25,204 bases of DNA from an uncultured Dehalococcoidaceae bacterium (GCA_964467135.1 CAYXOZ010000005.1:1-25204); one strand, 5' to 3'. Positions 4,420-25,204 are shown, numbered from the stretch's first letter. The notes: generated from the sequence alone by a model not told the origin. Numbers and translations: made by a program.

Positions 4420-4485
4420 CTGTGACTATCTTGTAACAGGCGTGCGACTTTTTGTGATTTGGATGTAACCGGGCGGAGTTAAAGT
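4420..4485 (+). promoter_or_regulatory. Promoter module 1: two 7-4-7 direct-repeat boxes plus -10
   Basis: CTGTGAC-TATC-TTGTAAC (4420-4437), TTGTGAT-TTGG-ATGTAAC (4452-4469), 10 nt, TAAAGT (4480-4485). The same geometry recurs at 16085-16150. Confidence 0.65.
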
Positions 4486-4595
4486 ATTGCCAGTTATTTC
4501 GTCAATTTGGTAAACCGTGTGAACAACGTAAGCAGCTTTAAAAACGCTGACGGTGTCTAACCGGCCCGGCATACCGGTTTCAAAGGAGGCGCAAC

Positions 4596-4814
4596 TTGCG
4601 AACAACCTTAGAAAAAACTTACCCGGAATATCTCACCACCGGTGTCGTGGCCAGGCACTGCGGCGTCAGTAAAGTGACCGTCCTGCGGTGGATTGAAAGG
4701 GGGAACCTGACGGCTTTCCGACTGCCCGGAGGGCAGAACCGGATACACCGGGACGACTTCTTCGCTTTCGCCGTCAGACACAGTATACCCATCAAGAAAA
4801 ACGATGACCAGTAA
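4596..4814 (+). CDS. Stand-alone excisionase/BldC-like (HTH_17, MerR-type) DNA-binding protein
   Basis: TTG start 6 nt after GGAGG; LTTGVVARHCGVSKVTVLRWIERGNLTAFRLPGGQNRI is a typical Xis/BldC-like winged HTH; 72 aa. Confidence 0.85.
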   Translation: MRTTLEKTYPEYLTTGVVARHCGVSKVTVLRWIERGNLTAFRLPGGQNRIHRDDFFAFAVRHSIPIKKNDDQ

Positions 4815-4904: not shown

Positions 4905-7900
4905 ATGTCCAGGTTCGAAAAGTCAACCATGTCACTCATCTTCCGCTATCTCCGCATCCTGATTGCCGCCGTCTTTCTCATCGGCTTTTTGCCCGCGCCG
5001 GCGCTGGCCGAGGGCACGCCGCCGGCAAATATCACCGACCTCGCGGCCGGCAGCCCCACGCACAACAGTATCGCCCTCAACTGGACGGCCCCCACCGATG
5101 ACGGACTGGCCACCCAGTATGAAATCCGGTACGCGACCACCGTTATCGGCAACGAAAACGCCTGGAACAGCGCCCAACCGGCGCAGAACGTTCCGCCGCC
5201 GCATACCGCCGGCACTCCGGAGAGCTTCGTTGTACCCAACCTCAGCGCCAATACCACCTATTTCTTCGCCGTCAAGACCCGGGACGATGAGGACCTTCTT
5301 TCCGGCCTGTCCAACTCCCCCTCCGCGACCACTTTATTATCGCCGACTTTCAGCATCACTCACAGCCAGAACCGCTATTCATTCATGCTCGCGGCGGGAG
5401 CCAATATTACCGAGACCTTCAACGTAACGTCATTGAATAATTTCACTGGGACCATCAACCTGGGTTTCGGCGGACCGCCGGAAATAGCCAATAACTCCTC
5501 GGTCACGCCCAACCAGGTCACCCTGTCACCCGGTCAAACGCAGGCAGTCGCCCTGAACATACGCGCCGGCGCCATGGCGCCTTCAGGTTCTTACCAGTGC
5601 GGACTCAACGGCAATGCCCCGGGCCAGCAGAAAAGCGCCTTTTTCACGGTCATCATCGGCGTGCCCGGGCAGCCGCTTTTATCAGCATCGCCGCCGGTGG
5701 TCGGTCCCGGAGGCCAGAGCAATATCTTCGCCGCGCAGTTCCCCGGCGCCGCTGACATCACCCTCAAATGGGACTCCGGCCCGAACGCCGGGCAGACCAT
5801 CACTTCGGGACAGACAACCGCGGAAGGGACCTGGAATACTTTATTGAGTATTCCGCCTCAGGTGCCCGGGGGAATCTTTATCCTGAAAGCGATTTCCGGC
5901 CAAGCCTCCGCCACCTGCCAGATAACGATTACCTCTGGCGCCGGCCCCGATTACCTTCTTTCCGCCTCCCCCCAGTTCGTTTCCATCACGCCCGGCCACT
6001 CCGCCAACGTCACTATTTACGTCCAATCTATTAGCGGCTTCAACAGCACCGTAACGCTTAATGCGGGCACCGCCCCCGGTGTGACCAGGAGTTTCTCGCC
6101 CACTAGCGTCACGCCCGCCAGCGGTGACACAGCATCCGCTATCCTGACCATCTCTGTAGCGGACTGGGCTTCCCCCAGCATGTACCAGTTGAACATCGAA
6201 GGGACCTGCGCCAGCCCGCCCATAAATAAGTTTACCAATATCAACCTGGACATCCAGCCGCAGGCGAACTGGGGCCCGGGTATCTCGCTATCGCAGTCCT
6301 ACGCCCGGGCCGGCGACATGATTACCGTCTCCGGCGCCAATTTCCCGCCGGCTACCCAGGGACAGGTGGTAACGATAAAAGAGGTATTTTCCAACACCAC
6401 GCTGCCGACCAACCCCGCCAGTATCACCGTCAACGGCGGCAGCTTTACCGGGACTTTCACCATCCCGTCCGGGATACCTTCCGGCAACTACCGCATTAAA
6501 GCCATCGTTCAGAGCACCGGCGACTTCGCCGAGAGGGACTTCCAGATTCTGGGGACCAGCGAGACCTTCACCCTGGGGGTATCACCGCAGTCGATGAGCG
6601 TGATGACGGAGCAGGACCACAACACGGCCATCGTTTCGGTGAATATCTTTTCCGTGGGCGGCAGCAGCGCTACCGTCAACCTGGCGCTGGAAGGCGTGCC
6701 GGGCTGGCTCACGTACCGGTTCGGCGCCCTGGCGGACAATACCCCGGCTACTGACGCCAATGCTGTATCCGTGCCCGCTGGCGGGTCAACCTCCGTTGAC
6801 CTTCAGCTTACCGCCAGCTTAACAGCGCCGACCGGCTCCTATCCGGTCACGATCAAAGGCTGGATAACGGCCAGCCCGGAACAGCGCGTCTCGTTACAGC
6901 TCATGATACAGCCGCCGTCCGGATTCGGTATGGCGGAGTTCACCCTCAGTCCCACCTTCGGGGAGAGCGGCCGGACGGTCACTTTCTCTGGCTCCGGCTT
7001 CACCGACTGCACGCCGAATGAAGTCAGGGCTCTTAATTTCGGCGGCATCGATATACTCGCCACCCAGAGCCTCCCCACCATCACCGTGCCTGCCTCCGGG
7101 GAGTCCGCGGGCAGGTTCTCCGGCACTTTCCGCGTGCCGGCGGCGCTAGCGCCGGGCACGTATCCGGTAGACATCAGAGTGGGCGATTCGCCCAGTAAAT
7201 TCATCGGCAAATCCTTCACGATAACCGGAGGCAGCGATACCTTCGTGCTACAGGCATCGCCGAGCTTCCTCTTTGTGCCTCAGGGCGGCCATATCACCAC
7301 CATGATACAGGTACAGGCCACCGGCTCCACGTCACCCACGGTTGCCCTGTCGCTGGAGGGATACCCGGCCAACGATATCGGCAGTCTCCTCAATCCCAAC
7401 AGCGTTACCGCGCCGCCAGGCGGCGTTGCCACCTCCGAGCTGACTCTGACCGCGCAGCCCTGGTTGCCGGCGGGCCATTACACGATTACCGTTAAGGGTA
7501 TCAGCGGCGCCGAGGTGCACCGTATCCCGCTGGAAATGGACGTGGCGCCGCCGGCCGGCATGAATATGGCTTCGATTTATCTCAGCCCGACGTCCGGGTA
7601 CGCTAGCACCTGGGTCACCATCAGCGGCAGCGGTTTCCAGGCGAACTCGAGCGTTACCCACCTCTATCTCGGACCGCCGACTGTCGACAACGACTGGGCG
7701 GGGCGCCTGCCGCCTATTGTGACCAACGAATCGGGGGCGTTTACCGCCGTTTTACAGATTCCATCAGTTCTGCCATCCGGCATGTACATGATTGAAGCGG
7801 TGACGGGCAACCCGCCCAACGACCGGAGGGCATCCGCCCAGTTTACCGTCTTCGGCAACGGGGCAAGTTTTAGCTTTAACCTATCTCCTAATATGATACA

Positions 7901-10900
7901 GGCACCGCCCGGTGCAACAGTAACGACATCCGTTAACGTGCAGTCGGTGGGGGCGTCCTCGTCCAACGTGACCCTCCGCGTCGAAGGCCCCCCGATAATC
8001 GAATGGCGTTTTGACGGCGGGGAGTGGGGAGCGCCTAAAACCGTCTCCCCGCCCATCGGCGCTTCCCTGGTATCCTCGCTGGAAATCCGGCCCAAGCCGG
8101 TGGCTCCCATGGGGCACTACTCGCTCGCGGTCAAAGCCGCCGCTGGCCAGCAAACAGAGATGCGTAACCTCGAGCTGGACATTGGCGCTTCCGCCGGATT
8201 TGACATGCCGATATTCTCGCTTAATCCCAATTCAGGTACGGCGGGCACTAACGTGTCCTTCAGCGGCTCGAACTTCCCGCCGGAAGCTAATATCACGGGA
8301 CTAACCTTCGGTGGGGCTAACATCACCCTCGGGCAAACGATTACCACCTCGGCGCAGCGCGCCTTTTCTGGCTCCTTCACCGTTCCCGCTACGCTGGGCG
8401 GTCAAGCCATCTCCCCGGGAACGTATGGCGTCAGGGTATACGTAGGCCAGGTTCAGGCGGAGACGCAGTTCTACGTTTACGGCGCCGATGATACCTTTAT
8501 GCTATCCTTATCTCCCAGTTATTTACAGGGCAGTCCCGGCATCCAGGTGCGTACATCCGGCCTGCTTAAAGCTTTAGCCGGCGCCGCCCCGACCGTTAAG
8601 ATGACGGTCAAGGGTCTGCCGCCTGGCGTGGAAACCGCCTGGAACGAAATCGTTCAACCCGTCTTTACCCTCGCCACACCGCCGGGAGGACAGAACAACT
8701 TCCAGCTGGGGCTGGTATTGCCCAACATGATACCGATGGGCATGTACCCGGCCGTCCTCGAAGGCTGGGTGGATACTAATGCGAACAACGTCTGGGACGC
8801 TAACGAAAAAATCAGTCGCGTCAATCTTGAGCTTTCGATTATGCCGCCCCAGGGCTATAACATGGGCATGCTTTCGCTCAATCCCAGCTTCGGCAGGGTG
8901 GGCGATACCATCACCTTCAGCGGCTCCGGGTTCGCCCGGAACACCGCGATTACCAGTTTGACCTTCGCCGGTAATAACATACTCATGGCGGATATCACTA
9001 CCTCCGATGACGACTCCGGCTCGTTCTCCGGGGTCTTCACCGTGCCCACCATGGGACCCGGCCGTTATCCGGTCGACGTCGTGGTAGGCGACCGCCGGGG
9101 CGGCTTTGAGTTCCAGATAGTCTCCGGCGACCAGAAGTTCAGCGTCAACGCCTCGCCGGGCTGGCTGGCGCGGCCGGCGGGAAATACCGGCAACGTCAAT
9201 ATCCAGGTAAGGTCTCTCGTCGCCACTCCGCCCAGTCCCTCCGTGGTCCTGCGGATAGAAGGACTGCCGATGGGTGTCACGCCGAGCTTCACTACCGCCA
9301 ACGTGACCCCGCCCGTCGGCGCGATGGAAAGTCGTGACCTTCAACTGACGATATCGAGCGGCTGCCCGATGGGCAACTATCCGATATCCGTCCGCGCCTA
9401 TAACGCCGCCAATCCCTCCGAGGAAATCTGGACGAACTTTACCCTCGAGGTAACGCCCTCCGCCGGTTTCATGGATATGGGCATGGCGATGGTCACCATA
9501 TCGCCCACTTTCGGTTCTGCCGGCGACCAGATAACGGTCAGCGGCTACGGCTTCCCCAAGAGCCAGAGCCTGACCTCCATACGACTCGGCCCGCAGAACA
9601 TCACCCCCGGCGTGGCTACTACCACCGATGACACCGGCGCTTTTTCCGCGGTAATTACCGTGCCATCCCTGCCTTCCGGGATGCACCCGCTGGAAGTCAA
9701 CGTACAGAACACCATCAGGAATCTGCCTTTCAATATCATGGGAGCGAGCGACACGTTCTCGCTGGAAGTCAGCCCCAACTGGCTGCAGCCTATACCTGCC
9801 GGCGACCCCAACGGACGCCAGATTGCCATCAGCGTTAACGCGCTACCCGGCAAGACGACCGCCGTCACTCTGAGGACGGAAGGGCTCTTCGCGGCTTACG
9901 GCACCATCACCGAGGTCTGGAACCCGACCTCGAAGTCGGTCAGCATTACCGATACGGGCGGCGCCGCCACGGCTACTCTGATACTAATCGCCTCGGAAAA
10001 CCTGCCGCCCGGCCCCTACCCCTTTAATATCGTGGCTATCGACGGCAGCAATAACCGGCGCGATTTCCATATGGAGTTCATGGTAGGCCCGCCGGCCGGC
10101 TTCATGAACAACGACTGGATGCAGCAGCAGGGCGTCTTCTTCCCGGAGATATTCCTATCACCCAAGAGCGGGTCGGTCGGCACGCAGGTGACGTTCACCG
10201 GCACTAACCTGCCCGCGGGCGCCAGCATTACCGCTATTAACTTCGCCGGTAACACGGTGCCGCTCCCCGCCGGCGGCCTCACGGCGGATGACACCGGCAG
10301 CCTTTCCGGCTCGTTCATCGTCAGCGAGGCCTGGAACCTGCCCGCCGGCGGCATGTACTGGGTGGACTTCCGACTGCAAAAGGACACCTGGTGGCAGAAC
10401 ATCGGCAAGGACTTTAACCTGATGCGGGCGGACGCCGCCTTCAGCCTGGAAGCCACGCCCAACTTTATACCGCCGATACAACCGGGGGGCAACGGGCAGA
10501 CAAAAATCAACGTTAAAGCCCTCGGCTATAACAGCGCCAACGTCTCGCTGGCGGTCATGGAGAGCCTGAACGGGTGGGGTATCCCGGGCGGGGTGCAGTT
10601 ACACTGGAACGCCGTCGACGGACCCGCCACGACCATCGCTAACGTCCCGGGCGGCGGCCAGACGGCGAAAGACTTTTACCTGGTCGCTTCCAACCCCGGC
10701 CATTACATGATAAACATCGTGGGCTGGATTGACAGCAACGCCAACCAGCTCCTCGAAAAGAACATACCTTCGGAAGCGCAATCCGAGTTCGGCATACCTT
10801 TGAACTTCGACGTCGCGCCGCCCGAGGGATTCCAGAACTGGAACATGGACACGATGATGGACCAGATGGACATGTCCAGTGACGATAAATACCTCTTTTA

Positions 10901-13900
10901 TTTCCCGGAGATTGTCCTGAACCCCGGTATGGGGCAGGCGGACACTAAAGTGAATATCAATGCCTCTGACTTCCCCGCTAACGCCGTGGTAACAAGCCTC
11001 CGCTTCGCCGGAACTAATCTACCCGTTCCCGCCGGCACCGCCGCGGACAGCAACGGGGACTTTTCGCTTGTCTTTAACGTCCCCAAGACCATGTGGAGCG
11101 CCAATATCACCGCCGGCTGGTACGACGTCGAGTTGGCGGCCGCCAAAGCCGGCGAGCCGGAAGTGCGCATCAGGAAGCCCTTCCAGGTGACCGATGCCAA
11201 CGTCGCCTTCACCCTCTGGGCCGAGCCCAACTGGCTGCCGCCGATTCCTCCCGGCGGCAGCGGCTCGGCGCTCATCCGCGTGAAGTCAATGGGCGTGGCC
11301 GCCAACGTAACGCTCTCGATGGATAAAATCCCGCCGGGTGTCACCACTACCTTCTCCGACGCGACGCTTGAGCTTAGCCCGGGCGGCTCGGAGAGCGCGA
11401 CCCTTACCCTGTCCCCGACGAACATCCCGCCGGGGCATTACGGCGCGGAAATCCGGGGCGCCGCTACCATCGGCGGGACCCCCAAGACCTTCTATACGCA
11501 TATCGAGTTCGAGGTGCAGCCGTCCACGATGTTTAAAGACACCGACTGGATGCAGCAGCAGGGTATCTGGTTCCCGGAAATAACCCTTAACCCCACCGCG
11601 GGACCGGTCAAGACCAAGGTAACGGTAAAAGCCACCGACTTCCCCGCCGGCGCTAACATCACCAACCTGCGTTTCGCCGGCAGGGAGCTCCCCATACCGG
11701 TTGGCACCGCCGCCAATAACGACGGCGACGCCGACCTTATCTTCAACGTGCCCGACGGCTACGGGGTCGGCCAGTACATGGTCGAAGTGGTCGCCACATC
11801 CGGCGCGCAGCCGGTGTTCATCGCCAAGCCCTTCTTCATCGAGGATGCCAACGTCACCTTCAAGCTCAACGTCGTGCCGGGCTTCATCGCCGGCGTGACG
11901 CAGGGCAGCTCGGGCAATACGACCATCTTTATTGAGTCGACCGGCCAGGCCCTGACCGTGCAGCTATACGTGGACGGGCTGCCGCCGGGCGTTATCGGAC
12001 TGTTTGAAAGCCAGAGCGTCAACGTGCCGCCGGGCGGCTCGAGCAACACCCGGCTGACCATCACCACCCGCGCTTCGACCGGTCCGGGCATGTACCCCCT
12101 GACCATACGGGGCGTCAGCGGCAGCTCTACCAGGACAGTACCTTTCGGCTTCGGCGTCATGCCGCCGGCCAGCTTCAACATGCCCAAGTTCACCCTCGAC
12201 CCCGACTACGCCCCCGCCGGCTACGACAATAAACAGTACAAGATAGCCTTCTCCGGGACCGGGTTCCCGGCCAGCCAGAGCGTCAGCAGTATCACCTTCG
12301 GCGCGCAGTCGGTTGCTATTCCGGCTAACCTGGCTACCGACGCCAACGGCAATTTCAGCGGCGTCTTCCAGATGCCCATCGGTCTGACCCCCGGCACCTA
12401 CGACGTCCGCATCGCCGTCGCCGACGGCCACGGAGGTTTTATCTATGACGCGCGGCCGTTCTCCATCAGGGGCTCTCAATCTAAATTCATGCTCAAAGCA
12501 TCGCCGCCTTACCTGCCGCCGGTGCTCCAGGGCGGACAGGGCACGACCATGATCACCGCCCAGTCCGTGGGCACTGTCGCGGCTAACGTTACCCTCTCCG
12601 TCGATGGTTTAGCGCCGGGTATCACGGCTGTCTTTACGCCGGGCAGCACTGTGACCGTTACCCCCGGCACCTCCAGCAGCGCCACGCTGACTCTTAACGT
12701 CAGCGCCAGCACGCCGCCCGGTCCTTATCCCCTGAGCATACGCGGCATCAGCGGCAGTGAAATGATAGTGATACCGCTCGGCTTCAGCGTCATGTCCAAT
12801 ATCGGCGGCGGAGGCGGTTACGCCTCCATTACCATCAATCCGCCTCAGGCCAGGCCCGGCGAGCATATCGGCGTATCCGGCGCCGGCTTTACCAGCGGCG
12901 CCACTATCACCCTGACGGCGGCGCCACCCGGCGCGGCCACCCCGATTAACATCACACCCGGGACGATACAGGTACTGAGCGACGGCACCTGGGCCACGGA
13001 AATCACCGTGCCTCCGGCCGCGCAGGTACCGCCCGGCTCTTATATCATTAAAGCCAGCGACGGCACCCTTGCCGCCAGGTGCCCGTTCAACATCGTCCCG
13101 GCCACCGGCGCCGACTTCTTCCTTACCGTCTCGCCGCAGTCCATCCAGGTGGTCAGGGGCCAGAACGCTAACACCACCATCAAGTTGACCTCCAAGAACG
13201 GGTTCAACCAGGTTATCCAGTTCAGCGTTGGTTTCCTGGCTCCCGGCGTCACCGCTACTTTCCGGGACGCCGCCGGTAATATCATCGGCCAGTACCAGGG
13301 CTCCCCGGGCGGCGTTCGGCAGACCATCGCGCCGGTAGCCCTGACCCCGGTGCCCGGTGAAGAACTGGTGGTCATCACCAACATCGCCGTGGATATAGCG
13401 ACACCGTTAGGTCCTTACGATATTCCGCTCGAGGTCAAGACCAGCACTATCGCCCGGGCAGTGCCGTTAGGTCTCATGGTAGTTTCCACCGGCGCCAACT
13501 TGAACCTATCGCCTTCAAGCGGGCCGGCGGACACCAATATCAGTCTCTCCGGTTCGGGCTTTACCGCCGGTGAGACCATCACCGCAAAATTCGCCGGCAA
13601 TAATATCACCACGGTGCCCGGCACCGTCACAGCGGGGCAGGACGGCACCTTTACCGCCGTTATCAGCGCTCCGGCGATGAACCCCGGTATCTACGCGGTC
13701 AGAGTCACCGGAGGCACCAGCGGCATCGTTATCGATAGACCGTTTAGTCTACAGCCATCCGCGGTTGATTCTTTCATCCTCTATACCAATCCGATGAAAG
13801 TCGATATCCCCAGGGGCGGCTCCGGCACGGCTATCATCAAGATTGAGCCGCTGGGCGGCTTACAGTCCTCGGTCGTCCTCAGCGTCACCGGGCTCAACGC

Positions 13901-15920
13901 CGTCAGCGGCGCCACCTCCACCATCCTGCCGGCGTCAACGATAACACCGAGTATCGCCACGCCGACCACCGCCACGCTGACCATCAACGTCCCGGCGGGC
14001 GCCACGGCGGGGAGATACCCGCTGACCGTCACTGCCACCAATGGCGCCATCACCCAGACGCGGAGCATCACCCTTAATATAGTGCCCCCGGCTAATACGC
14101 CTGATTTCGCTATCAGCCTTGCCCCCAATACCATCCCTATCAATCCAAGTTCGAGCGCCAACACCACGGTAACGGTAACCGCCTTTAACGGCTTCAGCGG
14201 CACCGTCGCCCTGGCCGTGGCCATGGCCGATGCGAGCGCCTTGCCGGCCAGCATCACCTATACCGCGGGGTCGGTAACGGCTTCCGCCAACACCGGTCTG
14301 GGCAAACAGACGGTCGTCTTTAATGCGAACGCCAGCGCCCTGCCGGGCACCTGGACATTCAGGATAACCGGCACCAGCGGCGCCCTGACCCACAGCACGG
14401 ACGTCATGGTCATCTCGACACCCTCCGGGACAACGGTGACCACCTACGCCTCGCCGCTCCTCGACCCGAGCACCGTTACCTCGAGCACGCCGATTGATAT
14501 GACGGCCCCCTGGGGCGACGTCATCACCATCAACGGCATCATCAACGACGGCGGCGAAGCTGGTACCATTACCCCGTCTAACATCGATGTGCTGCCGGAT
14601 ACCCTGGCCGATCTTCCGGAAGGCGCCACCGACATGCTGGGCAGGGTAACCAATATCGATTCCAGCGTTCCCGTCGACGGGGTGGACTGGGACATCGGCT
14701 TCCCGTTTGACCCCGCCGACCTTGAGGCCGCCGGCCTCGCGGAAGAAAACCTGAAGGTAGCCTACCTCGACCCCGATACGGGGGAGTGGACGGAGGTGAC
14801 CACCACCGTCGATACCGACGCTAATATGGCCTACGCCTCGCCGGAGCACTTCAGCTCCTGGACGCTGCTCGCCACGACCAACCCGCCCCCGTCCCGGGTC
14901 GTTAATACCGGCGGTGGCGGCGGAGGCGGCGGCGCGACCGGCGTCACCTCGGTGTCTACCTCCGTCACCGGCAGCGGCAAGTTCGTCGTCGAGGTCACGG
15001 CGGAGTCAGCCGACGGCAAAGTGGAGATAACCATACCGAAAGACACTGTCGGCAAGAACAGCGTGGGCCAACGCTTGAGCTTCATCTCCATCAAACCGCA
15101 GGCCAATGCCCCCGCTCCTCCCGCCGATGCCAAAATCATCGGACTCGTTTACGATATCGGCCCCGGCGGCTCTACCTTCAACCCGGCCATATACGTCAAG
15201 TTCGACTATCAGGAATCGTCTCTACCCGCCGGTATAGTCGAGGAGGACCTGGTGATAGCCACCTTCCAGGACGGAAAATGGGTTAACCTTGCGGGCGGTG
15301 TCGTCGACAAGGCGAAAAATACGATTACCGCACCGGTGAACCATTTCTCGTCATTCACCGTCATGGCGCCGACGGCCGTAGCCCGTTTCAGCATCACCGG
15401 CCTTAAAGTAGCGCCGTCCGTGAGCTCTCCCAACGACCCTGTTACCGTCATCGCCACCGTTGCCAATACCGGTGAGCTCTCCGGCGACTACGAGGTCATC
15501 CTGACCATAAACGAGAGCGTGGCAGTTACGGAAAAAATCACGCTGGCCGCCCATACCAGCCAGGATGTCGATTTTACCATCGCCCCGAATAAAGTCGGGA
15601 CCTATGCCATCGATGTCAACGGCATGACCGCCACGCTGACCGTCAGGGAAGAAACAGCCGGCGCGGACGAGGTGCCGTCCGCCGGGGGTGAAACACCCGG
15701 AGAAATGGCGCCTGCCCCGGCTGAGGAGCCGTCCGCCGCAGAAACATTGCCTCCCGGAGTACAAGAGGAACCCCAGGCAACGACGGTGCCCGCTCTCTCG
15801 GAGCCGGAAACCGGTGAGTTCCCGATGTTCATGATATGGATTATCATCGGCATCATCGCCTTGAGTGCCGGTATCGGCATATCCGTCCGGCGGATACGCT
15901 CCAGCAGCAAGAATTCCTGA
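4905..15920 (+). CDS. Giant (3671 aa) secreted, C-terminally membrane-anchored multi-Ig-domain surface protein (putative adhesin)
   Basis: AGGAGGT RBS; signal peptide ending PALA|EG; N-terminal FN3-like domain; about 28 repeated beta-sandwich units; two HFS-ending domains; a CARDB-like domain; a Pro/Glu/Ala/Thr-rich stalk; a hydrophobic helix (about 15822-15887) followed by RRIR. Confidence 0.9.
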   Translation: MSRFEKSTMSLIFRYLRILIAAVFLIGFLPAPALAEGTPPANITDLAAGSPTHNSIALNWTAPTDDGLATQYEIRYATTVIGNENAWNSAQPAQNVPPPHTAGTPESFVVPNLSANTTYFFAVKTRDDEDLLSGLSNSPSATTLLSPTFSITHSQNRYSFMLAAGANITETFNVTSLNNFTGTINLGFGGPPEIANNSSVTPNQVTLSPGQTQAVALNIRAGAMAPSGSYQCGLNGNAPGQQKSAFFTVIIGVPGQPLLSASPPVVGPGGQSNIFAAQFPGAADITLKWDSGPNAGQTITSGQTTAEGTWNTLLSIPPQVPGGIFILKAISGQASATCQITITSGAGPDYLLSASPQFVSITPGHSANVTIYVQSISGFNSTVTLNAGTAPGVTRSFSPTSVTPASGDTASAILTISVADWASPSMYQLNIEGTCASPPINKFTNINLDIQPQANWGPGISLSQSYARAGDMITVSGANFPPATQGQVVTIKEVFSNTTLPTNPASITVNGGSFTGTFTIPSGIPSGNYRIKAIVQSTGDFAERDFQILGTSETFTLGVSPQSMSVMTEQDHNTAIVSVNIFSVGGSSATVNLALEGVPGWLTYRFGALADNTPATDANAVSVPAGGSTSVDLQLTASLTAPTGSYPVTIKGWITASPEQRVSLQLMIQPPSGFGMAEFTLSPTFGESGRTVTFSGSGFTDCTPNEVRALNFGGIDILATQSLPTITVPASGESAGRFSGTFRVPAALAPGTYPVDIRVGDSPSKFIGKSFTITGGSDTFVLQASPSFLFVPQGGHITTMIQVQATGSTSPTVALSLEGYPANDIGSLLNPNSVTAPPGGVATSELTLTAQPWLPAGHYTITVKGISGAEVHRIPLEMDVAPPAGMNMASIYLSPTSGYASTWVTISGSGFQANSSVTHLYLGPPTVDNDWAGRLPPIVTNESGAFTAVLQIPSVLPSGMYMIEAVTGNPPNDRRASAQFTVFGNGASFSFNLSPNMIQAPPGATVTTSVNVQSVGASSSNVTLRVEGPPIIEWRFDGGEWGAPKTVSPPIGASLVSSLEIRPKPVAPMGHYSLAVKAAAGQQTEMRNLELDIGASAGFDMPIFSLNPNSGTAGTNVSFSGSNFPPEANITGLTFGGANITLGQTITTSAQRAFSGSFTVPATLGGQAISPGTYGVRVYVGQVQAETQFYVYGADDTFMLSLSPSYLQGSPGIQVRTSGLLKALAGAAPTVKMTVKGLPPGVETAWNEIVQPVFTLATPPGGQNNFQLGLVLPNMIPMGMYPAVLEGWVDTNANNVWDANEKISRVNLELSIMPPQGYNMGMLSLNPSFGRVGDTITFSGSGFARNTAITSLTFAGNNILMADITTSDDDSGSFSGVFTVPTMGPGRYPVDVVVGDRRGGFEFQIVSGDQKFSVNASPGWLARPAGNTGNVNIQVRSLVATPPSPSVVLRIEGLPMGVTPSFTTANVTPPVGAMESRDLQLTISSGCPMGNYPISVRAYNAANPSEEIWTNFTLEVTPSAGFMDMGMAMVTISPTFGSAGDQITVSGYGFPKSQSLTSIRLGPQNITPGVATTTDDTGAFSAVITVPSLPSGMHPLEVNVQNTIRNLPFNIMGASDTFSLEVSPNWLQPIPAGDPNGRQIAISVNALPGKTTAVTLRTEGLFAAYGTITEVWNPTSKSVSITDTGGAATATLILIASENLPPGPYPFNIVAIDGSNNRRDFHMEFMVGPPAGFMNNDWMQQQGVFFPEIFLSPKSGSVGTQVTFTGTNLPAGASITAINFAGNTVPLPAGGLTADDTGSLSGSFIVSEAWNLPAGGMYWVDFRLQKDTWWQNIGKDFNLMRADAAFSLEATPNFIPPIQPGGNGQTKINVKALGYNSANVSLAVMESLNGWGIPGGVQLHWNAVDGPATTIANVPGGGQTAKDFYLVASNPGHYMINIVGWIDSNANQLLEKNIPSEAQSEFGIPLNFDVAPPEGFQNWNMDTMMDQMDMSSDDKYLFYFPEIVLNPGMGQADTKVNINASDFPANAVVTSLRFAGTNLPVPAGTAADSNGDFSLVFNVPKTMWSANITAGWYDVELAAAKAGEPEVRIRKPFQVTDANVAFTLWAEPNWLPPIPPGGSGSALIRVKSMGVAANVTLSMDKIPPGVTTTFSDATLELSPGGSESATLTLSPTNIPPGHYGAEIRGAATIGGTPKTFYTHIEFEVQPSTMFKDTDWMQQQGIWFPEITLNPTAGPVKTKVTVKATDFPAGANITNLRFAGRELPIPVGTAANNDGDADLIFNVPDGYGVGQYMVEVVATSGAQPVFIAKPFFIEDANVTFKLNVVPGFIAGVTQGSSGNTTIFIESTGQALTVQLYVDGLPPGVIGLFESQSVNVPPGGSSNTRLTITTRASTGPGMYPLTIRGVSGSSTRTVPFGFGVMPPASFNMPKFTLDPDYAPAGYDNKQYKIAFSGTGFPASQSVSSITFGAQSVAIPANLATDANGNFSGVFQMPIGLTPGTYDVRIAVADGHGGFIYDARPFSIRGSQSKFMLKASPPYLPPVLQGGQGTTMITAQSVGTVAANVTLSVDGLAPGITAVFTPGSTVTVTPGTSSSATLTLNVSASTPPGPYPLSIRGISGSEMIVIPLGFSVMSNIGGGGGYASITINPPQARPGEHIGVSGAGFTSGATITLTAAPPGAATPINITPGTIQVLSDGTWATEITVPPAAQVPPGSYIIKASDGTLAARCPFNIVPATGADFFLTVSPQSIQVVRGQNANTTIKLTSKNGFNQVIQFSVGFLAPGVTATFRDAAGNIIGQYQGSPGGVRQTIAPVALTPVPGEELVVITNIAVDIATPLGPYDIPLEVKTSTIARAVPLGLMVVSTGANLNLSPSSGPADTNISLSGSGFTAGETITAKFAGNNITTVPGTVTAGQDGTFTAVISAPAMNPGIYAVRVTGGTSGIVIDRPFSLQPSAVDSFILYTNPMKVDIPRGGSGTAIIKIEPLGGLQSSVVLSVTGLNAVSGATSTILPASTITPSIATPTTATLTINVPAGATAGRYPLTVTATNGAITQTRSITLNIVPPANTPDFAISLAPNTIPINPSSSANTTVTVTAFNGFSGTVALAVAMADASALPASITYTAGSVTASANTGLGKQTVVFNANASALPGTWTFRITGTSGALTHSTDVMVISTPSGTTVTTYASPLLDPSTVTSSTPIDMTAPWGDVITINGIINDGGEAGTITPSNIDVLPDTLADLPEGATDMLGRVTNIDSSVPVDGVDWDIGFPFDPADLEAAGLAEENLKVAYLDPDTGEWTEVTTTVDTDANMAYASPEHFSSWTLLATTNPPPSRVVNTGGGGGGGGATGVTSVSTSVTGSGKFVVEVTAESADGKVEITIPKDTVGKNSVGQRLSFISIKPQANAPAPPADAKIIGLVYDIGPGGSTFNPAIYVKFDYQESSLPAGIVEEDLVIATFQDGKWVNLAGGVVDKAKNTITAPVNHFSSFTVMAPTAVARFSITGLKVAPSVSSPNDPVTVIATVANTGELSGDYEVILTINESVAVTEKITLAAHTSQDVDFTIAPNKVGTYAIDVNGMTATLTVREETAGADEVPSAGGETPGEMAPAPAEEPSAAETLPPGVQEEPQATTVPALSEPETGEFPMFMIWIIIGIIALSAGIGISVRRIRSSSKNS
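5346..14420 (+). repeat. Intragenic protein-level tandem array: (A-B)x13 followed by A-A
   Basis: A units read F.L..sP.....G......v.s......V.L.v.GlPpGv...L.l.......G.Yp..v.g. B units read i.LsP..G..G..vt.sGsgF......l.F.G......td..G.Fsg.f.vP....G.Y.v.v. Counted by eye; boundaries approximate. Confidence 0.75.
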
Positions 15921-15938
15921 AACCTCCTCTTTTTCCAG

Positions 15939-15986
15939 ACAGGCTTCCCCCTCTCTCCAAAATCGGGGGAGGGGAAGCCTGTTTTC
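15939..15986 (+). terminator. Rho-independent terminator after the giant gene
   Basis: ACAGGCTTCCCC...GGGGAAGCCTGT is a 12-bp perfect stem, extendable with G-U pairs, followed by a T run, 18 nt after the stop. Confidence 0.75.
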
Positions 15987-16084
15987 GGGGAGTCACCGAA
16001 GCCTCACACCGTCCACCCTGGCACTCACATTATTGCGCGCCTCCCGCCCTTGAACCGCCGGATAATATCAAGCGCTGAAATCGG

Positions 16085-16150
16085 TTGTGATATTCCTGTT
16101 AGGTTCTGCCAGCAGCCTGTGACAATATCGTGAGGCGATTTTTATATACT
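16085..16150 (+). promoter_or_regulatory. Promoter module 2: two 7-4-7 direct-repeat boxes plus -10
   Basis: TTGTGAT-ATTC-CTGTTAG (16085-16102), CTGTGAC-AATA-TCGTGAG (16117-16134), 10 nt, TATACT (16145-16150). Offsets (+32, +60) are identical to module 1. Confidence 0.65.
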
Positions 16151-16239
16151 TCAAACGTAGCAAACACCGCTAGCACCAGATATAACAATTCTTATTATTT
16201 ACTCACTGGCAGCCCGGTAACGCCGGTATGGAGGTAAGC

Positions 16240-16467
16240 TTGCCTAAAGCGCAGGAACAGTGGACCCCGGAGTTCATCTCCGTGGGCTTTATCGCCAAAC
16301 GCTGCGGCGTCAGCAATACCACCGTATTGCGCTGGATTAATACCCGCCAACTGCCGGCTTTTAAGCTTCCCGGCGGCCATTTCCGTATAGAGAGGACCGA
16401 ATTTTCCCGGTTCCTGGATAGACATCACATGCCGGTACGGGCCACGCGACTGGAAAAAACTCCGTAG
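16240..16467 (+). CDS. Second stand-alone excisionase/BldC-like HTH protein (paralogue of 4596-4814)
   Basis: ISVGFIAKRCGVSNTTVLRWINTRQLPAFKLPGGHFRI...FSRFLDRHHMP. TTG 16240 is preferred because GGAGG (16230-16234) lies 5 nt upstream; the in-frame ATG at 16228 lacks an RBS. Confidence 0.85.
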   Translation: MPKAQEQWTPEFISVGFIAKRCGVSNTTVLRWINTRQLPAFKLPGGHFRIERTEFSRFLDRHHMPVRATRLEKTP

Positions 16468-16580
16468 TGATTCTGAGACGATTAATATGCATATAGCCGA
16501 CAAAAACGGGCAAAAGGGATTAACACTATGTAACGGAACGGTCCGTGTTACTCAGGAATAAACACTACGGGAGGTAAGAA

Positions 16581-16967
16581 ATGCCAAAAGACATGGCCCA
16601 TAAAATACGTCGATTCCTCAGGAAAATCGACCGTAATGGCAAGGGTTTTACCCTGGTGGAACTGCTTATCGTCGTGGCTATCCTGGGCGTCCTGGCGGCG
16701 GTCGTCCTGCCTAACGTCACCGGTCTCGCCGGCGAAGGGCAGGAGGAAGCCGCCAAGGCCGAGCTGGTGACCGTGCAGACAGCCATGGACACGATGATGG
16801 CGAAAAGCCACATCACCTCGGTCACCGCCACCACCACCACTGACGATATGTCGGCTTTTCCGACAGGACGGCCGTTATATCCGGATTACCTGAGGACTGA
16901 CACCACCAAGGGCACTTATTCCTGTACCATCACCGGTCTGGTTACCCAGGTATCTAAAGGCTATTAG
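16581..16967 (+). CDS. Type IV pilin (PilA-like prepilin)
   Basis: GGAGGT RBS; basic 22-aa leader; class III cleavage site KG|FTLVELLIVVAILGVLAAVVLP with Glu at +5. Confidence 0.92.
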   Translation: MPKDMAHKIRRFLRKIDRNGKGFTLVELLIVVAILGVLAAVVLPNVTGLAGEGQEEAAKAELVTVQTAMDTMMAKSHITSVTATTTTDDMSAFPTGRPLYPDYLRTDTTKGTYSCTITGLVTQVSKGY

Positions 16968-23768: not shown

Positions 23769-24096
23769 AGGCTATGAAGTTATTACCGCCGCCAACGGAC
23801 TGGAAGGCATCAGAAAAGCCCGCCTTGAAGCCCCCGACGTGGTCATTCTGGATGTCATGCTGCCGGGCATGGACGGCTTCGAAATCTGTCACCGCCTGCG
23901 GTCCGAGCCGGACACGGCCCAACTGCGGATATTGATGTTTTCCGCCAAAGCCCAGGAGATAGATAAAAATACCGGGCTGAAAGTGGGGGCGGATGACTAT
24001 TTACCCAAACCGGCCGCCCCGGCGGAAATCGTGAGTCGGGTGGAAAAGCTGCTGGCAAAGAAGAAAAGCCACCGTGCCGCCGAGGAGAAGGTGTGA
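23695..24096 (+). CDS. Single-domain response regulator
   Basis: AGGAGG RBS; ILVIEDD, ILDVMLPGMDG, FSAK and DYLPKP; 133 aa with no output domain. Confidence 0.92.
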   Translation: MTKKILVIEDDPAISRLVDYSLRHEGYEVITAANGLEGIRKARLEAPDVVILDVMLPGMDGFEICHRLRSEPDTAQLRILMFSAKAQEIDKNTGLKVGADDYLPKPAAPAEIVSRVEKLLAKKKSHRAAEEKV

Positions 24097-25204
24097 CGAA
24101 CGATAATGACAGACCTCCCGCCGCCGCCAGAACTGCTAAAAAAAACCTCGGTGAGTTGCTCGTCGAAGAGGCGCTCATCACACCGGCGCAGCTGGAAAAC
24201 GCCCTGGCGCTGCAGAAACAAAAAGGGGGCACGCTGAGCGATGCCCTTTTAAGCCAGGGGGCCATTAAAGCCGAGCAGCTCGCCGTCATGCTCAGCATCA
24301 AGCTGAACCTGCCGCTTATCGACCTCAAGAGACACGTGATACAGCCCCGGGCCTTACGCCTCATCCCCGAGGAGATGGCGCGGAAACACACCCTTATTCC
24401 CATGGACATCGTCAACGACTCTCTGATGGTGGTCATGGCCGACCCGGAAGACGTCCGCACCATCGAGGATATCAAAGCCCAGGCTAAAATGAGGGTCGAG
24501 GTGGCTCTGGGTGTCCCTTCGGACATCGAACGCGCGATTAATATCAACTATAGGTCGAGCGGCGCCATCGAAAAACAGGTCAGTCAGTTTGCCCCGGCCG
24601 ATGCGGCAAAGACCGACGAGACCCCGGCAGTGACCGCCAGTACGCCCATCACGGAGACCCTCAATCTGCTGATTACCCAGGCGATTAAAGACCGGGCCTC
24701 GGACGTCCATATCGAACCGCAGGAGGATAGACTGCGTATCCGCTACCGGATTGACGGCATCCTCCACGACATGTTCGCCTTTCCGCTCAGCGTCCACGCG
24801 CCGCTGGTGTCACGCGTGAAAATCCTCGCCGAGATGGACATCTCCGAGCAGAGACGACCCCAGGACGGGCAATTTTCCCTGAGGGTCGGCAACAACGAGG
24901 TAGATATCCGCACCGCCACCATGGAAACGCCCTACGGGGAGAGGGTCACTTTAAGGATTCTGGACAAGTCCCTGGCGCTCTTCACTCTCTCCGAGCTCGG
25001 TTTCCAGCCCGACGCCCTGATAAAATACCAGGCCATGCTGAAGCGACCCCATGGCATGATACTGGCCGGCGGACCTACCGGCTCCGGCAAGACGACCACC
25101 CTCTACGCCTCCATCAATGAGCTCGACCGGAACGAGCGTAATATCATGACCATCGAGGACCCCATCGAGTACAGCTTCATGGATATCAACCAGAGCCAGG
25201 TAAA
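24093..25204 (+). CDS. pilB: PilB/GspE/PulE-family assembly ATPase, truncated by the window end
   Basis: Absent from the ORF track. GTG at 24093 overlaps the upstream TGA (GTGA) with GAGGAG 5 nt upstream, and the frame stays open to the end. MshEN-like N-terminus (NLGELLVEEALIT..QL..AL..Q), ASDVHIEP, RYRIDG, EMDISEQRRPQDG, Walker A GPTGSGKT (25071-25094) and TIEDPIEY. Confidence 0.93.
   Translation, partial: MTNDNDRPPAAARTAKKNLGELLVEEALITPAQLENALALQKQKGGTLSDALLSQGAIKAEQLAVMLSIKLNLPLIDLKRHVIQPRALRLIPEEMARKHTLIPMDIVNDSLMVVMADPEDVRTIEDIKAQAKMRVEVALGVPSDIERAININYRSSGAIEKQVSQFAPADAAKTDETPAVTASTPITETLNLLITQAIKDRASDVHIEPQEDRLRIRYRIDGILHDMFAFPLSVHAPLVSRVKILAEMDISEQRRPQDGQFSLRVGNNEVDIRTATMETPYGERVTLRILDKSLALFTLSELGFQPDALIKYQAMLKRPHGMILAGGPTGSGKTTTLYASINELDRNERNIMTIEDPIEYSFMDINQSQV

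Follow-up and report, generated by a model that had tools for sequence, protein, structure and literature searches.

A conserved two-unit promoter module upstream of a small helix-turn-helix gene and a type IV pilin gene in an uncultured Dehalococcoidaceae bacterium, most likely controlled by an uncharacterised OmpR-family clade

What switches on the type IV pilin gene of an uncultured Dehalococcoidaceae bacterium, and the small gene for a helix-turn-helix (HTH) protein, HTH2, that precedes it? The DNA analysed here (the window) comprises 25,204 nucleotides (nt) and is the complete contig C5 of a metagenome-assembled genome (MAG) of 1.73 Mb in 267 contigs. A first-pass annotation had placed two boxes and a -10 hexamer upstream of HTH2 (module 2) and had described the same arrangement upstream of a second gene, HTH1 (module 1). 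We find that module 2 is almost certainly a genuine cis-regulatory promoter and that its boxes are, judging from their format and distribution, very probably bound by a regulator of the OmpR/PhoB family; as to the individual protein, we lean towards a regulator encoded on contig C39, in the same gene cluster, acting as an activator.

Inspection of the sequence bears out the arrangement: the boxes TTGTGAT and CTGTGAC start at 16085 and 16117 (+32), TATACT occupies 16145-16150 (+60), and module 1 has the same offsets, with CTGTGAC at 4420, TTGTGAT at 4452 and TAAAGT at 4480. Each box is part of a 17-base-pair (bp) unit in which two half-sites follow each other in direct orientation at a distance of 11 bp (TGTGAY-N5-TGTRA), i.e. 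a module contains four half-sites, at 0, 11, 32 and 43, and, counted from its first unit, has the geometry 0/+32/+59. The parts are:

16086-16102, plus strand: unit a (distal), TGTGATATTCCTGTTAG, with half-sites TGTGAT (16086-16091) and TGTTA (16097-16101)
16103-16117, plus strand: spacer between the units, 15 bp, fixed in length and variable in sequence
16118-16134, plus strand: unit b (proximal), TGTGACAATATCGTGAG, with half-sites TGTGAC (16118-16123) and CGTGA (16129-16133)
16145-16150, plus strand: -10 hexamer TATACT, after a gap of 10 bp following unit b
4421-4485, plus strand: module 1, with unit a at 4421-4437, unit b at 4453-4469 and the -10 hexamer TAAAGT at 4480-4485

On its own, the 7-mer YTGTGAY shows no enrichment in the window (10 matches, 6.8 expected), which is what a chance resemblance would predict, and the significance rests on the arrangement, not on the 7-mer. 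The pattern TGTGAYN6GTNA matches exactly the four units of the window (TGTGACTATCTTGTAAC, TGTGATTTGGATGTAAC, TGTGATATTCCTGTTAG and TGTGACAATATCGTGAG), with 0.23 matches expected, but it was derived post hoc, from sites already seen. As an independent test we used the strict module pattern TGTGAY-N26-TGTGAY-N21-TANNNT, with the same pattern reversed as control, on 61 related genomes and on a sample of 401 Chloroflexota genomes; genomes with at least one strict module are referred to as module-bearing. The pattern has five matches in this genome; of the 61 relatives, 23 contain a total of 85, and none of the 61 contains a match to the control. In the phylum sample, where the control has four matches in total, strict modules are found in this genome and, beyond it, for the most part in f63 and f67, two distant families whose genomes measure 4-7 Mb.

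The positions that the pattern leaves free are informative as well. In a matrix built on 83 of the 85 strict matches, positions 12-16 are T in 79, G in 83, T in 67, G in 47 or A in 20, and A in 77 modules, and positions 44-48 are T in 61, G in 66, T in 78, G in 53 or A in 23, and A in 76, i.e. the second half-site emerges in both units. The consensus of the hexamer is TAnAnT, its fourth, unselected position being A in 65 of 83. The spacer of unit a is T-rich, and the information content of positions 22-29, between the units, is about zero; the distance of 10 bp between unit b and the hexamer is built into the pattern. The geometry 0/+32/+59 recurs at least seven times in this MAG, the two window modules included, with the following further copies:

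C1:26795, -10 hexamer TAAACT
C64:6551, -10 hexamer TATGAT
C98:585, -10 hexamer TAGACT
C160:1598/1566, minus strand, -10 hexamer TACAAT
C94:2889, -10 hexamer TAGGCT, unit b weak

The strict pattern is conservative, as it misses the copies on C160 and C94 and the HTH2 module of one relative (G006).

The module is kept at orthologous loci. All 15 HTH2 loci, which come from several genera, have the 0/+32/+59 arrangement with variable spacers, and their conserved blocks are unit a (consensus TGTGATATTYCTGTWA), unit b, the -10 hexamer (TATACT in 13, TAAACT in two) and a block right after it; of the spacer between the units only a short yTT run beside unit a is conserved. Upstream of HTH1, 43 of 59 orthologs have a strict module and most of the others a near-match. 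The view that the box geometry is under selection for protein binding, put forward by the first-pass annotation, is thus upheld by its retention at the HTH2 and HTH1 loci and by the 85 strict matches in 23 genomes, together with the divergence of the spacers, which differ between the two window modules in a pairwise alignment and among the HTH2 orthologs. A functionless remnant of the duplication that gave HTH1 and HTH2 might be considered since the two downstream genes are paralogous. However, the flanks of the two copies do not align any more than their spacers do and only the boxes correspond in an alignment of the whole regions, so that modules 1 and 2 do not go back to a recent duplication; moreover, the module is kept across genera and classes ahead of unrelated genes, the control has no match among the relatives and the unselected positions are informative. 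We therefore consider chance or such a remnant extremely improbable.

If the module is a promoter, how is it read by RNA polymerase? A canonical sigma-70 promoter has a TATAAT-like -10 element, present here as TATACT, and a TTGACA-like -35 element 16-18 bp further upstream, which is missing. Across the 83 modules the -35 window matches TTGACA at a mean of 1.5 of 6 positions with a 17-bp spacer, which is the chance level, and the same holds for spacers of 16-19 bp. As the -35 region matches at chance level only, the promoter is probably protein-dependent. Consistent with the missing -35 element, a consensus scan called no sigma-70 promoter on the plus strand in either module region, and neither window module shows an extended -10 TG. 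A transcription start at about 16155-16158 is predicted from the customary spacing of about 7 nt to the -10 hexamer; the value near 16157 expected by the first-pass annotation is reasonable, and unit a would then lie at about -71 to -55 and unit b at about -39 to -23, i.e. where a -35 element would be. A search for start sites in one wetland metatranscriptome gave pilin-coding fragments only, mostly those of relatives, and no 5' ends.

With the -35 region at chance level and no promoter called, a bound activator is the simplest way for such a promoter to fire. The opposite sense of regulation, in which the bound protein represses because unit b occludes the region contacted by the polymerase and the promoter fires on release, draws on the position of unit b at about -39 to -23, a region in which a bound protein is able to obstruct the polymerase; regulators of the RpaB type repress where their site overlaps the core promoter. 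Yet the 83 modules are without a recognisable -35 element and the window modules without an extended -10 TG, so that the unoccupied promoter would be weak, and a fixed distance of 10 bp to the -10 hexamer together with fixed upstream phasing is, as far as can be inferred from Pho-box promoters, typical of activators. Repression is thus quite unlikely.

The format of the units narrows down the kind of protein. Direct half-sites 10-11 bp apart from centre to centre, as recognised by the OmpR/PhoB family, are present in all four window units and in the 83 modules, and the site takes the place of the -35 element at a fixed short distance from the -10 hexamer, no usable -35 element being present. 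One of the closest known formats is the Pho box (E. coli pstS, phoA), in which 18 bp accommodate two direct CTGTCAY repeats of 7 bp and, between them, an AT-rich spacer of 4 bp; the box lies 10 bp upstream of the -10 element. Written in this format, the module unit reads YTGTGAY-N4-YTGTRAS, with its end 10 bp ahead of TAnAnT; the 11-bp period, the location in the place of the -35 element, the further boxes upstream in phase and the probable dependence on an activator are further points of likeness. In contrast to the Pho box, base 5 of the half-site is G instead of C, and the second unit lies 32 bp upstream instead of 22 bp. Inverted repeats of the CRP/FNR or Rex kind (TGTGA-N6-TCACA), and likewise LexA-like ones, are ruled out, as the partner TGTRA is direct in the four units and in the 83-module matrix. 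LytTR sites are 9-bp repeats about 21 bp apart, an arrangement that the 11-bp pairs do not match.

Which OmpR/PhoB-family protein could this be? The genome encodes 11 Trans_reg_C proteins, and three candidates, named after their contigs, were profiled across the 61 relatives:

C39 type, at least 74% identity: 17 of 23 module-bearing and 0 of 38 module-free relatives
C39 type, at least 57% identity: 20 of 23 module-bearing and 5 of 38 module-free relatives
C205 type (closest to the models of MtrA and YycF): 18 of 23 module-bearing and 17 of 38 module-free relatives
C67 type: 4 of 23 module-bearing and 2 of 38 module-free relatives

The C39 regulator has 232 amino acids (aa) and is encoded at C39:854-1549 on the minus strand beside a MEDS-GAF-PAS histidine kinase, about 18.6 kb downstream of HTH2, its start lying about 9.6 kb past the end of the window. 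Every one of the 17 genomes with an ortholog of at least 74% identity is module-bearing, and at the threshold of 57% the association has a Fisher p = 1e-8, relatedness being ignored in this test. In the phylum sample the closest homologs (49-57% identity) are concentrated in f63 and f67, as the modules are, and modules and homologs coincide in 12 of the 401 genomes (1.7 expected). In at least eight genomes, e.g. G004, G006, G007, G011, G018 and G019, C39-type genes show synteny with the HTH/pilus cluster, and in G014 and G025 module, HTH1, kinase and regulator follow one another within about 3 kb. Moreover, in nine genomes a module adjoins the regulator gene: it begins no more than about 150 bp after the regulator stop and on the same strand in G016, G020, G025, G027 and G055, and likewise in four genomes of other classes, G088, G232, G338 and G346. 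The clade has a characteristic recognition helix, H-[LM]-L-Q-V-N-[IV]-x-R-L-R, which is common to its members across classes at about 52% overall identity and is unlike that of all nine paralogs compared in this genome. The site is thus matched by a plausible cognate regulator on four counts, namely location in the same cluster, phylogenetic profile, overlap in the phylum and adjacency.

Another member of the family could be the binder instead, chiefly the MtrA/WalR-like, housekeeping-type regulator on C205, or any other of the 11 proteins. Per residue, the C205 regulator achieves the highest scores with the models of MtrA and YycF, a 172-aa fragment reaching 202 and 196 bits, and the MtrA consensus GTnAC fits TGTGAC. 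Nevertheless, it tracks the modules poorly and was set aside, as it is found in nearly half of the module-free relatives (p = 0.016 for the difference), many module-free families of the order included. The C67 regulator was rejected since just 6 of 61 relatives have it and the other members of the genus lack it, yet modules are present throughout the genus. In addition, neither type is chromosomally linked to modules, and both have RTVDVH-type recognition helices, unlike the clade that tracks the module. Binding by a different regulator of this family is therefore unlikely.

A rival outside the OmpR/PhoB family is offered by the genes downstream of the modules themselves, i.e. HTH1, HTH2 and HTH3 might bind the boxes head to tail, like BldC, and thereby auto- and cross-regulate their own operons; in a variant, a 'split regulator', they would be the DNA-binding half that works with orphan receiver proteins. 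All three paralogs of this genome have a module directly upstream, the four other HTH_17 genes have none, and the subfamily is found in 18 of 23 module-bearing and 2 of 38 module-free relatives. HTH2 is weakly similar to RacA (E = 0.02) and BldC (E = 0.4-0.8, i.e. marginal) among solved structures, and proteins of the BldC family bind direct repeats as head-to-tail multimers, the sites of BldC itself being contiguous 9-bp repeats AATTNNNN(C) (PMC5859096). Against such a filament, the boxes are 11-bp pairs separated by a step of 21 bp, which fits dimers, and they have no AATT core; the module is like the BldC system in its direct repeats and in the downstream MerR-like winged-helix proteins of about 70 aa without effector domain, but it is not a BldC site. 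Five genomes carry modules without the HTH1/2/3 subfamily, and all five have a homolog of the C39 regulator: G020 (94% complete) and G021 contain only unrelated HTH_17 types, with no more than 28 bits against the subfamily profile, and three genomes of f67, G232, G314 and G426, give no match to a profile on which true members score 100-120 bits. The regulon also includes zinc-ribbon and GH3/HD genes with no HTH gene nearby. Self-binding by the HTH proteins thus appears improbable.

What, then, is the C39 regulator related to? Its top NCBIfam matches are RpaB (231 bits), MtrA (219) and YycF (212), all under the respective cut-off, and its best matches in the PDB are RegX3, an unnamed DNA-binding response regulator (6lgq), MtrA (2gwr, E = 1e-44) and KdpE. 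In cyanobacteria, RpaB acts at HLR1, which consists of two (G/T)TTACA repeats in direct orientation (TGTAA when read on the opposite strand) and whose effect depends on where it lies relative to the core promoter. Although RpaB is the top match, the half-site is TGTGA, not TGTAA, and period, two-unit geometry and regulon differ as well. With PhoB the score is 206 bits (equivalog cut-off 296), and the targets are small DNA-binding proteins, an adhesin and a pilus instead of phosphate genes. MtrA itself has a recognition helix of the TRLVNVH type. The MtrA site of Actinobacteria is a 9-nt direct repeat with 2-nt spacing, c-G-T/A-n-A-C/T-c (PMC6265350), so that the direct repeat and the G-T-n-A-C core, which fits TGTGAC, are shared, as is the type of regulator, MtrA being among the best matches. 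In contrast, the fixed two-unit geometry is not described for MtrA, and the helix of the C39 regulator, HLLQVNIARLR, is unlike the RTVDVH-type helices of the paralogs nearest to MtrA and WalR. WalR (YycF/VicR) of Firmicutes recognises TGTWAH-N5-TGTWAH, and the PhoB repeat CTGTCAC is quoted in the same paper (PMC4168254). Direct hexamers, the 5-bp spacer and the TGT-A core are common to both, and the second half-sites TGTAAC and TGTTAG fit exactly. Position 4, however, is G in all first half-sites, where the pattern requires it, yet also in all four sites of the window, and in 47-53 of 83 second half-sites, which is outside W; nor is there a regulon of cell-wall hydrolases. With a G at position 4 of the half-site and a regulator that stays under the respective equivalog cut-offs, the module lies outside the WalR, MtrA, RpaB and PhoB regulons.

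Several points weigh against the assignment to the C39 regulator. All support is comparative sequence analysis, and co-occurrence is confounded by shared ancestry; among close relatives the HTH subfamily tracks the modules almost equally well. The regulator is below every named NCBIfam equivalog cut-off (RpaB 330, MtrA 300, YycF 340), so that DNA specificity is not transferable from a characterised protein. No ortholog of the regulator was detected in G002, a MAG of 84% completeness with four modules, and no C39 homolog at E <= 1e-50 in G037, which has two. Conversely, five relatives with homologs of about 60% identity and 18 genomes with homologs in the phylum sample have no strict modules, and in the genus of our bacterium the regulator gene is followed directly by a degenerate module. 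Finally, a site that overlaps the -35 region could also serve repression.

Two observations concern genomes outside the family. In G037, which belongs to another family of the order and has a genome of 1.0 Mb (L031, L054), the two modules are near-identical and lie upstream of a gene for a MerR-like small HTH protein of 86 aa (MPVEIDGKVYYRT...). In large genomes of f63 and f67 (L139 in G346, L140 in G232, L142 in G088) kinase, regulator and module follow one another, with UspA-like genes (MFERILVPLDGS...) close downstream; the Usp-like gene comes directly after the module in G088, and another open reading frame (ORF) comes first in G346 and G232. From this arrangement it appears that the pair of regulator and module is old and that its targets differ.

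From the motif, its geometry and its distribution we infer binding, activation rather than repression, and a stoichiometry of two dimers per module, and we propose the following scheme. Module 2 would be the activator-dependent promoter of the HTH2-pilin unit, in which a -10 element of the sigma-70 type is combined with two 17-bp sites that replace the -35 element. Two head-to-tail dimers of a phosphorylated OmpR/PhoB-family regulator would sit on the same side of the double helix, three helical turns apart, and the promoter-proximal dimer would recruit RNA polymerase, as PhoB does at the Pho box. The C39 regulator, the most likely candidate, would also switch on module 1, with HTH1 and the giant surface protein, and the third HTH_17 paralog, as well as two small zinc-ribbon proteins and a GH3/7TM-GAF-HD operon. 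Module 1 lies upstream of HTH1 (4596-4814) and of the gene for a surface protein of 3671 aa (4905-15920), and recurrent classes of genes downstream of strict modules across the family are HTH_17 proteins of the HTH1, HTH2 and HTH3 types, two kinds of small zinc-ribbon proteins and an operon of a GH3-family gene with a 7TM-GAF-HD gene. The HTH3 module lies next to C64:3211-6435 (minus strand) and appears, by eye, to be divergent from a ModE-like regulator gene and a molybdate/tungstate-type ABC transporter.

The transcription unit served by module 2 can be described from its surroundings:

15939-15985, plus strand: intrinsic terminator hairpin with U tract, after the gene for the 3671-aa surface protein (stop at 15920)
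16240-16467, plus strand: HTH2 gene, 75 aa, HTH_17 (MerR/Xis/BldC-like winged helix; Pfam HTH_17, E = 1.3e-10)
16581-16967, plus strand: type IV pilin gene, 128 aa, with N-terminal methylation motif (Pfam N_methyl, E = 1.7e-9)
24093-25204, plus strand: pilB, 5' part, inside which the window ends (Pfam T2SSE, profile positions 5-192)

The region 15925-15995 folds with -37.5 kcal/mol (z = -3.66, none of 200 shuffles being as good), although a simple terminator scan missed the hairpin, and similar GC hairpins with T runs are found upstream of the module at orthologous loci. Because of this strong terminator directly upstream, module 2 constitutes a separate transcription start region, which, together with the conserved module, the -10 hexamer and the lack of a -35 element, substantiates the promoter architecture that had been annotated in front of HTH2 and pilin. 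HTH2, which is 48% identical to HTH1, starts with TTG at 16240, 5 nt after GGAGG (16230-16234), and its orthologs also start with TTG after GGAGG; the same holds for all three paralogs of this genome (4596 and 16240 in the window, C64:6693), which start with TTG a few bases after GGAGG, and for most of their orthologs. At 13 of 15 orthologous loci the pilin gene comes next after HTH2, with a gap of 6-116 bp, and no conserved promoter was found between the two genes where pilin follows. Given the short gap and the lack of such a promoter, the pilin gene is probably co-transcribed with HTH2 from module 2. A 151-nt contig of a wetland metatranscriptome covers 16536-16686, the 5' region of the pilin gene, with one mismatch, which points weakly to in situ expression of the pilin gene in this strain or one nearly identical to it. 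A search against Rfam found no RNA family in the whole window and no riboswitch in the 5' untranslated region (UTR), and the predicted structure of the HTH2 5' UTR is not unusual (z = +0.72).

Downstream of pilin the window encodes two PAS kinases, two receiver-only proteins and then pilB, which is split across contigs: positions 25150-25204 are an exact overlap of 55 nt with the reverse complement of C39, whose first ORF covers T2SSE profile positions 176-370. The pilus cluster continues there for about 11 kb, with pilC, minor pilins, a PilM-like gene, the MEDS-GAF-PAS histidine kinase (975 aa), the OmpR-type regulator discussed above, an 83-aa gene and a receiver protein in this order, and in the relative G006 the same gene order is found on one contig.

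The block that follows the -10 hexamer lies at 16152-16174 on the plus strand (CAAACGTAGCAAACACCGCTAGC) and is kept in the 15 HTH2 orthologs with variable flanks. It contains a direct repeat, CAAAC-N4-CAAnC, with a 9-bp period, i.e. with BldC-like spacing, and is unique in this genome at up to five mismatches; a 4-bp hairpin in it is broken without compensation by substitutions in the orthologs. The block may act as an operator of HTH2 or as a signal in the initial transcript. The 5' UTR of HTH1 (about 4486-4536) contains a conserved block of its own, ...TTCGTyAA...GTTAACCGCGTGAACAACGTAA, across about 50 orthologs that come from a large number of MAGs. It is tempting to speculate on a two-tier switch for surface structures, although we regard it as doubtful: one kinase/regulator pair would stand over three BldC/RacA-like mini-HTH leader genes, the HTH proteins acting in cis on their own units through conserved elements right after the -10 hexamer, such as the CAAAC repeats at 16152-16174, with 0/+32/+59 as a shared 'grammar'. 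One of the three genes would lead the 11-kb adhesin gene and one the pilus operon, while the third, HTH3, has its downstream genes cut off by the contig end. The conserved elements might serve as feedback operators, or as sites at which an AlpA/Q-like factor is loaded that keeps the polymerase going through very long genes.

The frame is found in this lineage with other half-sites, too. A second promoter class, with half-sites TGTCAY/TGTAAY, has the same 0/+32/+59 frame in the form TGTCAYAGTTTTGTAAY-N15-TTTATRACTTTTCCAC-N10-TAGAAT, with copies in this genome at C7:596 (minus strand), C7:698, C8:4863, C8:8103, C8:10313, C25:10637, C45:9996 (minus strand), C97:1993 and C172:2491; among its targets are genes for a universal-stress protein, for a flavodoxin-like protein and for small Cys-rich proteins. 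The stop of another OmpR-type regulator (C8:3935-4816) precedes the start of the copy at C8:4863 by 47 bp, which suggests a general layout of regulator followed by target promoter in this lineage, and the frame seems to be a shared 'grammar' of at least two paralogous regulators with different half-sites.

A literature search found no described regulator or promoter of a Dehalococcoidia pilus. What emerges here is control in the style of the Pho box, MtrA and WalR in a new lineage and no new principle; most likely, an uncharacterised clade of the OmpR family, with a fixed two-dimer promoter frame, controls pilus, adhesin and mini DNA-binding genes in uncultured Chloroflexota. The Dehalococcoidales of wetlands and sediments are almost all uncultured, and the control of their gene expression is hardly known. 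Our analysis provides a testable regulon for them, consisting of a promoter format, a candidate kinase/regulator pair and a list of targets, i.e. the type IV pilin, the 3671-aa surface protein, the three mini-HTHs, the two zinc-ribbon proteins and the GH3/7TM-GAF-HD operon. MAGs of this family and of the two distant Chloroflexota families can be annotated for promoters and regulon members with the strict pattern, and in the bacterium itself surface attachment and pili would come under one signalling input, the MEDS-GAF-PAS kinase.

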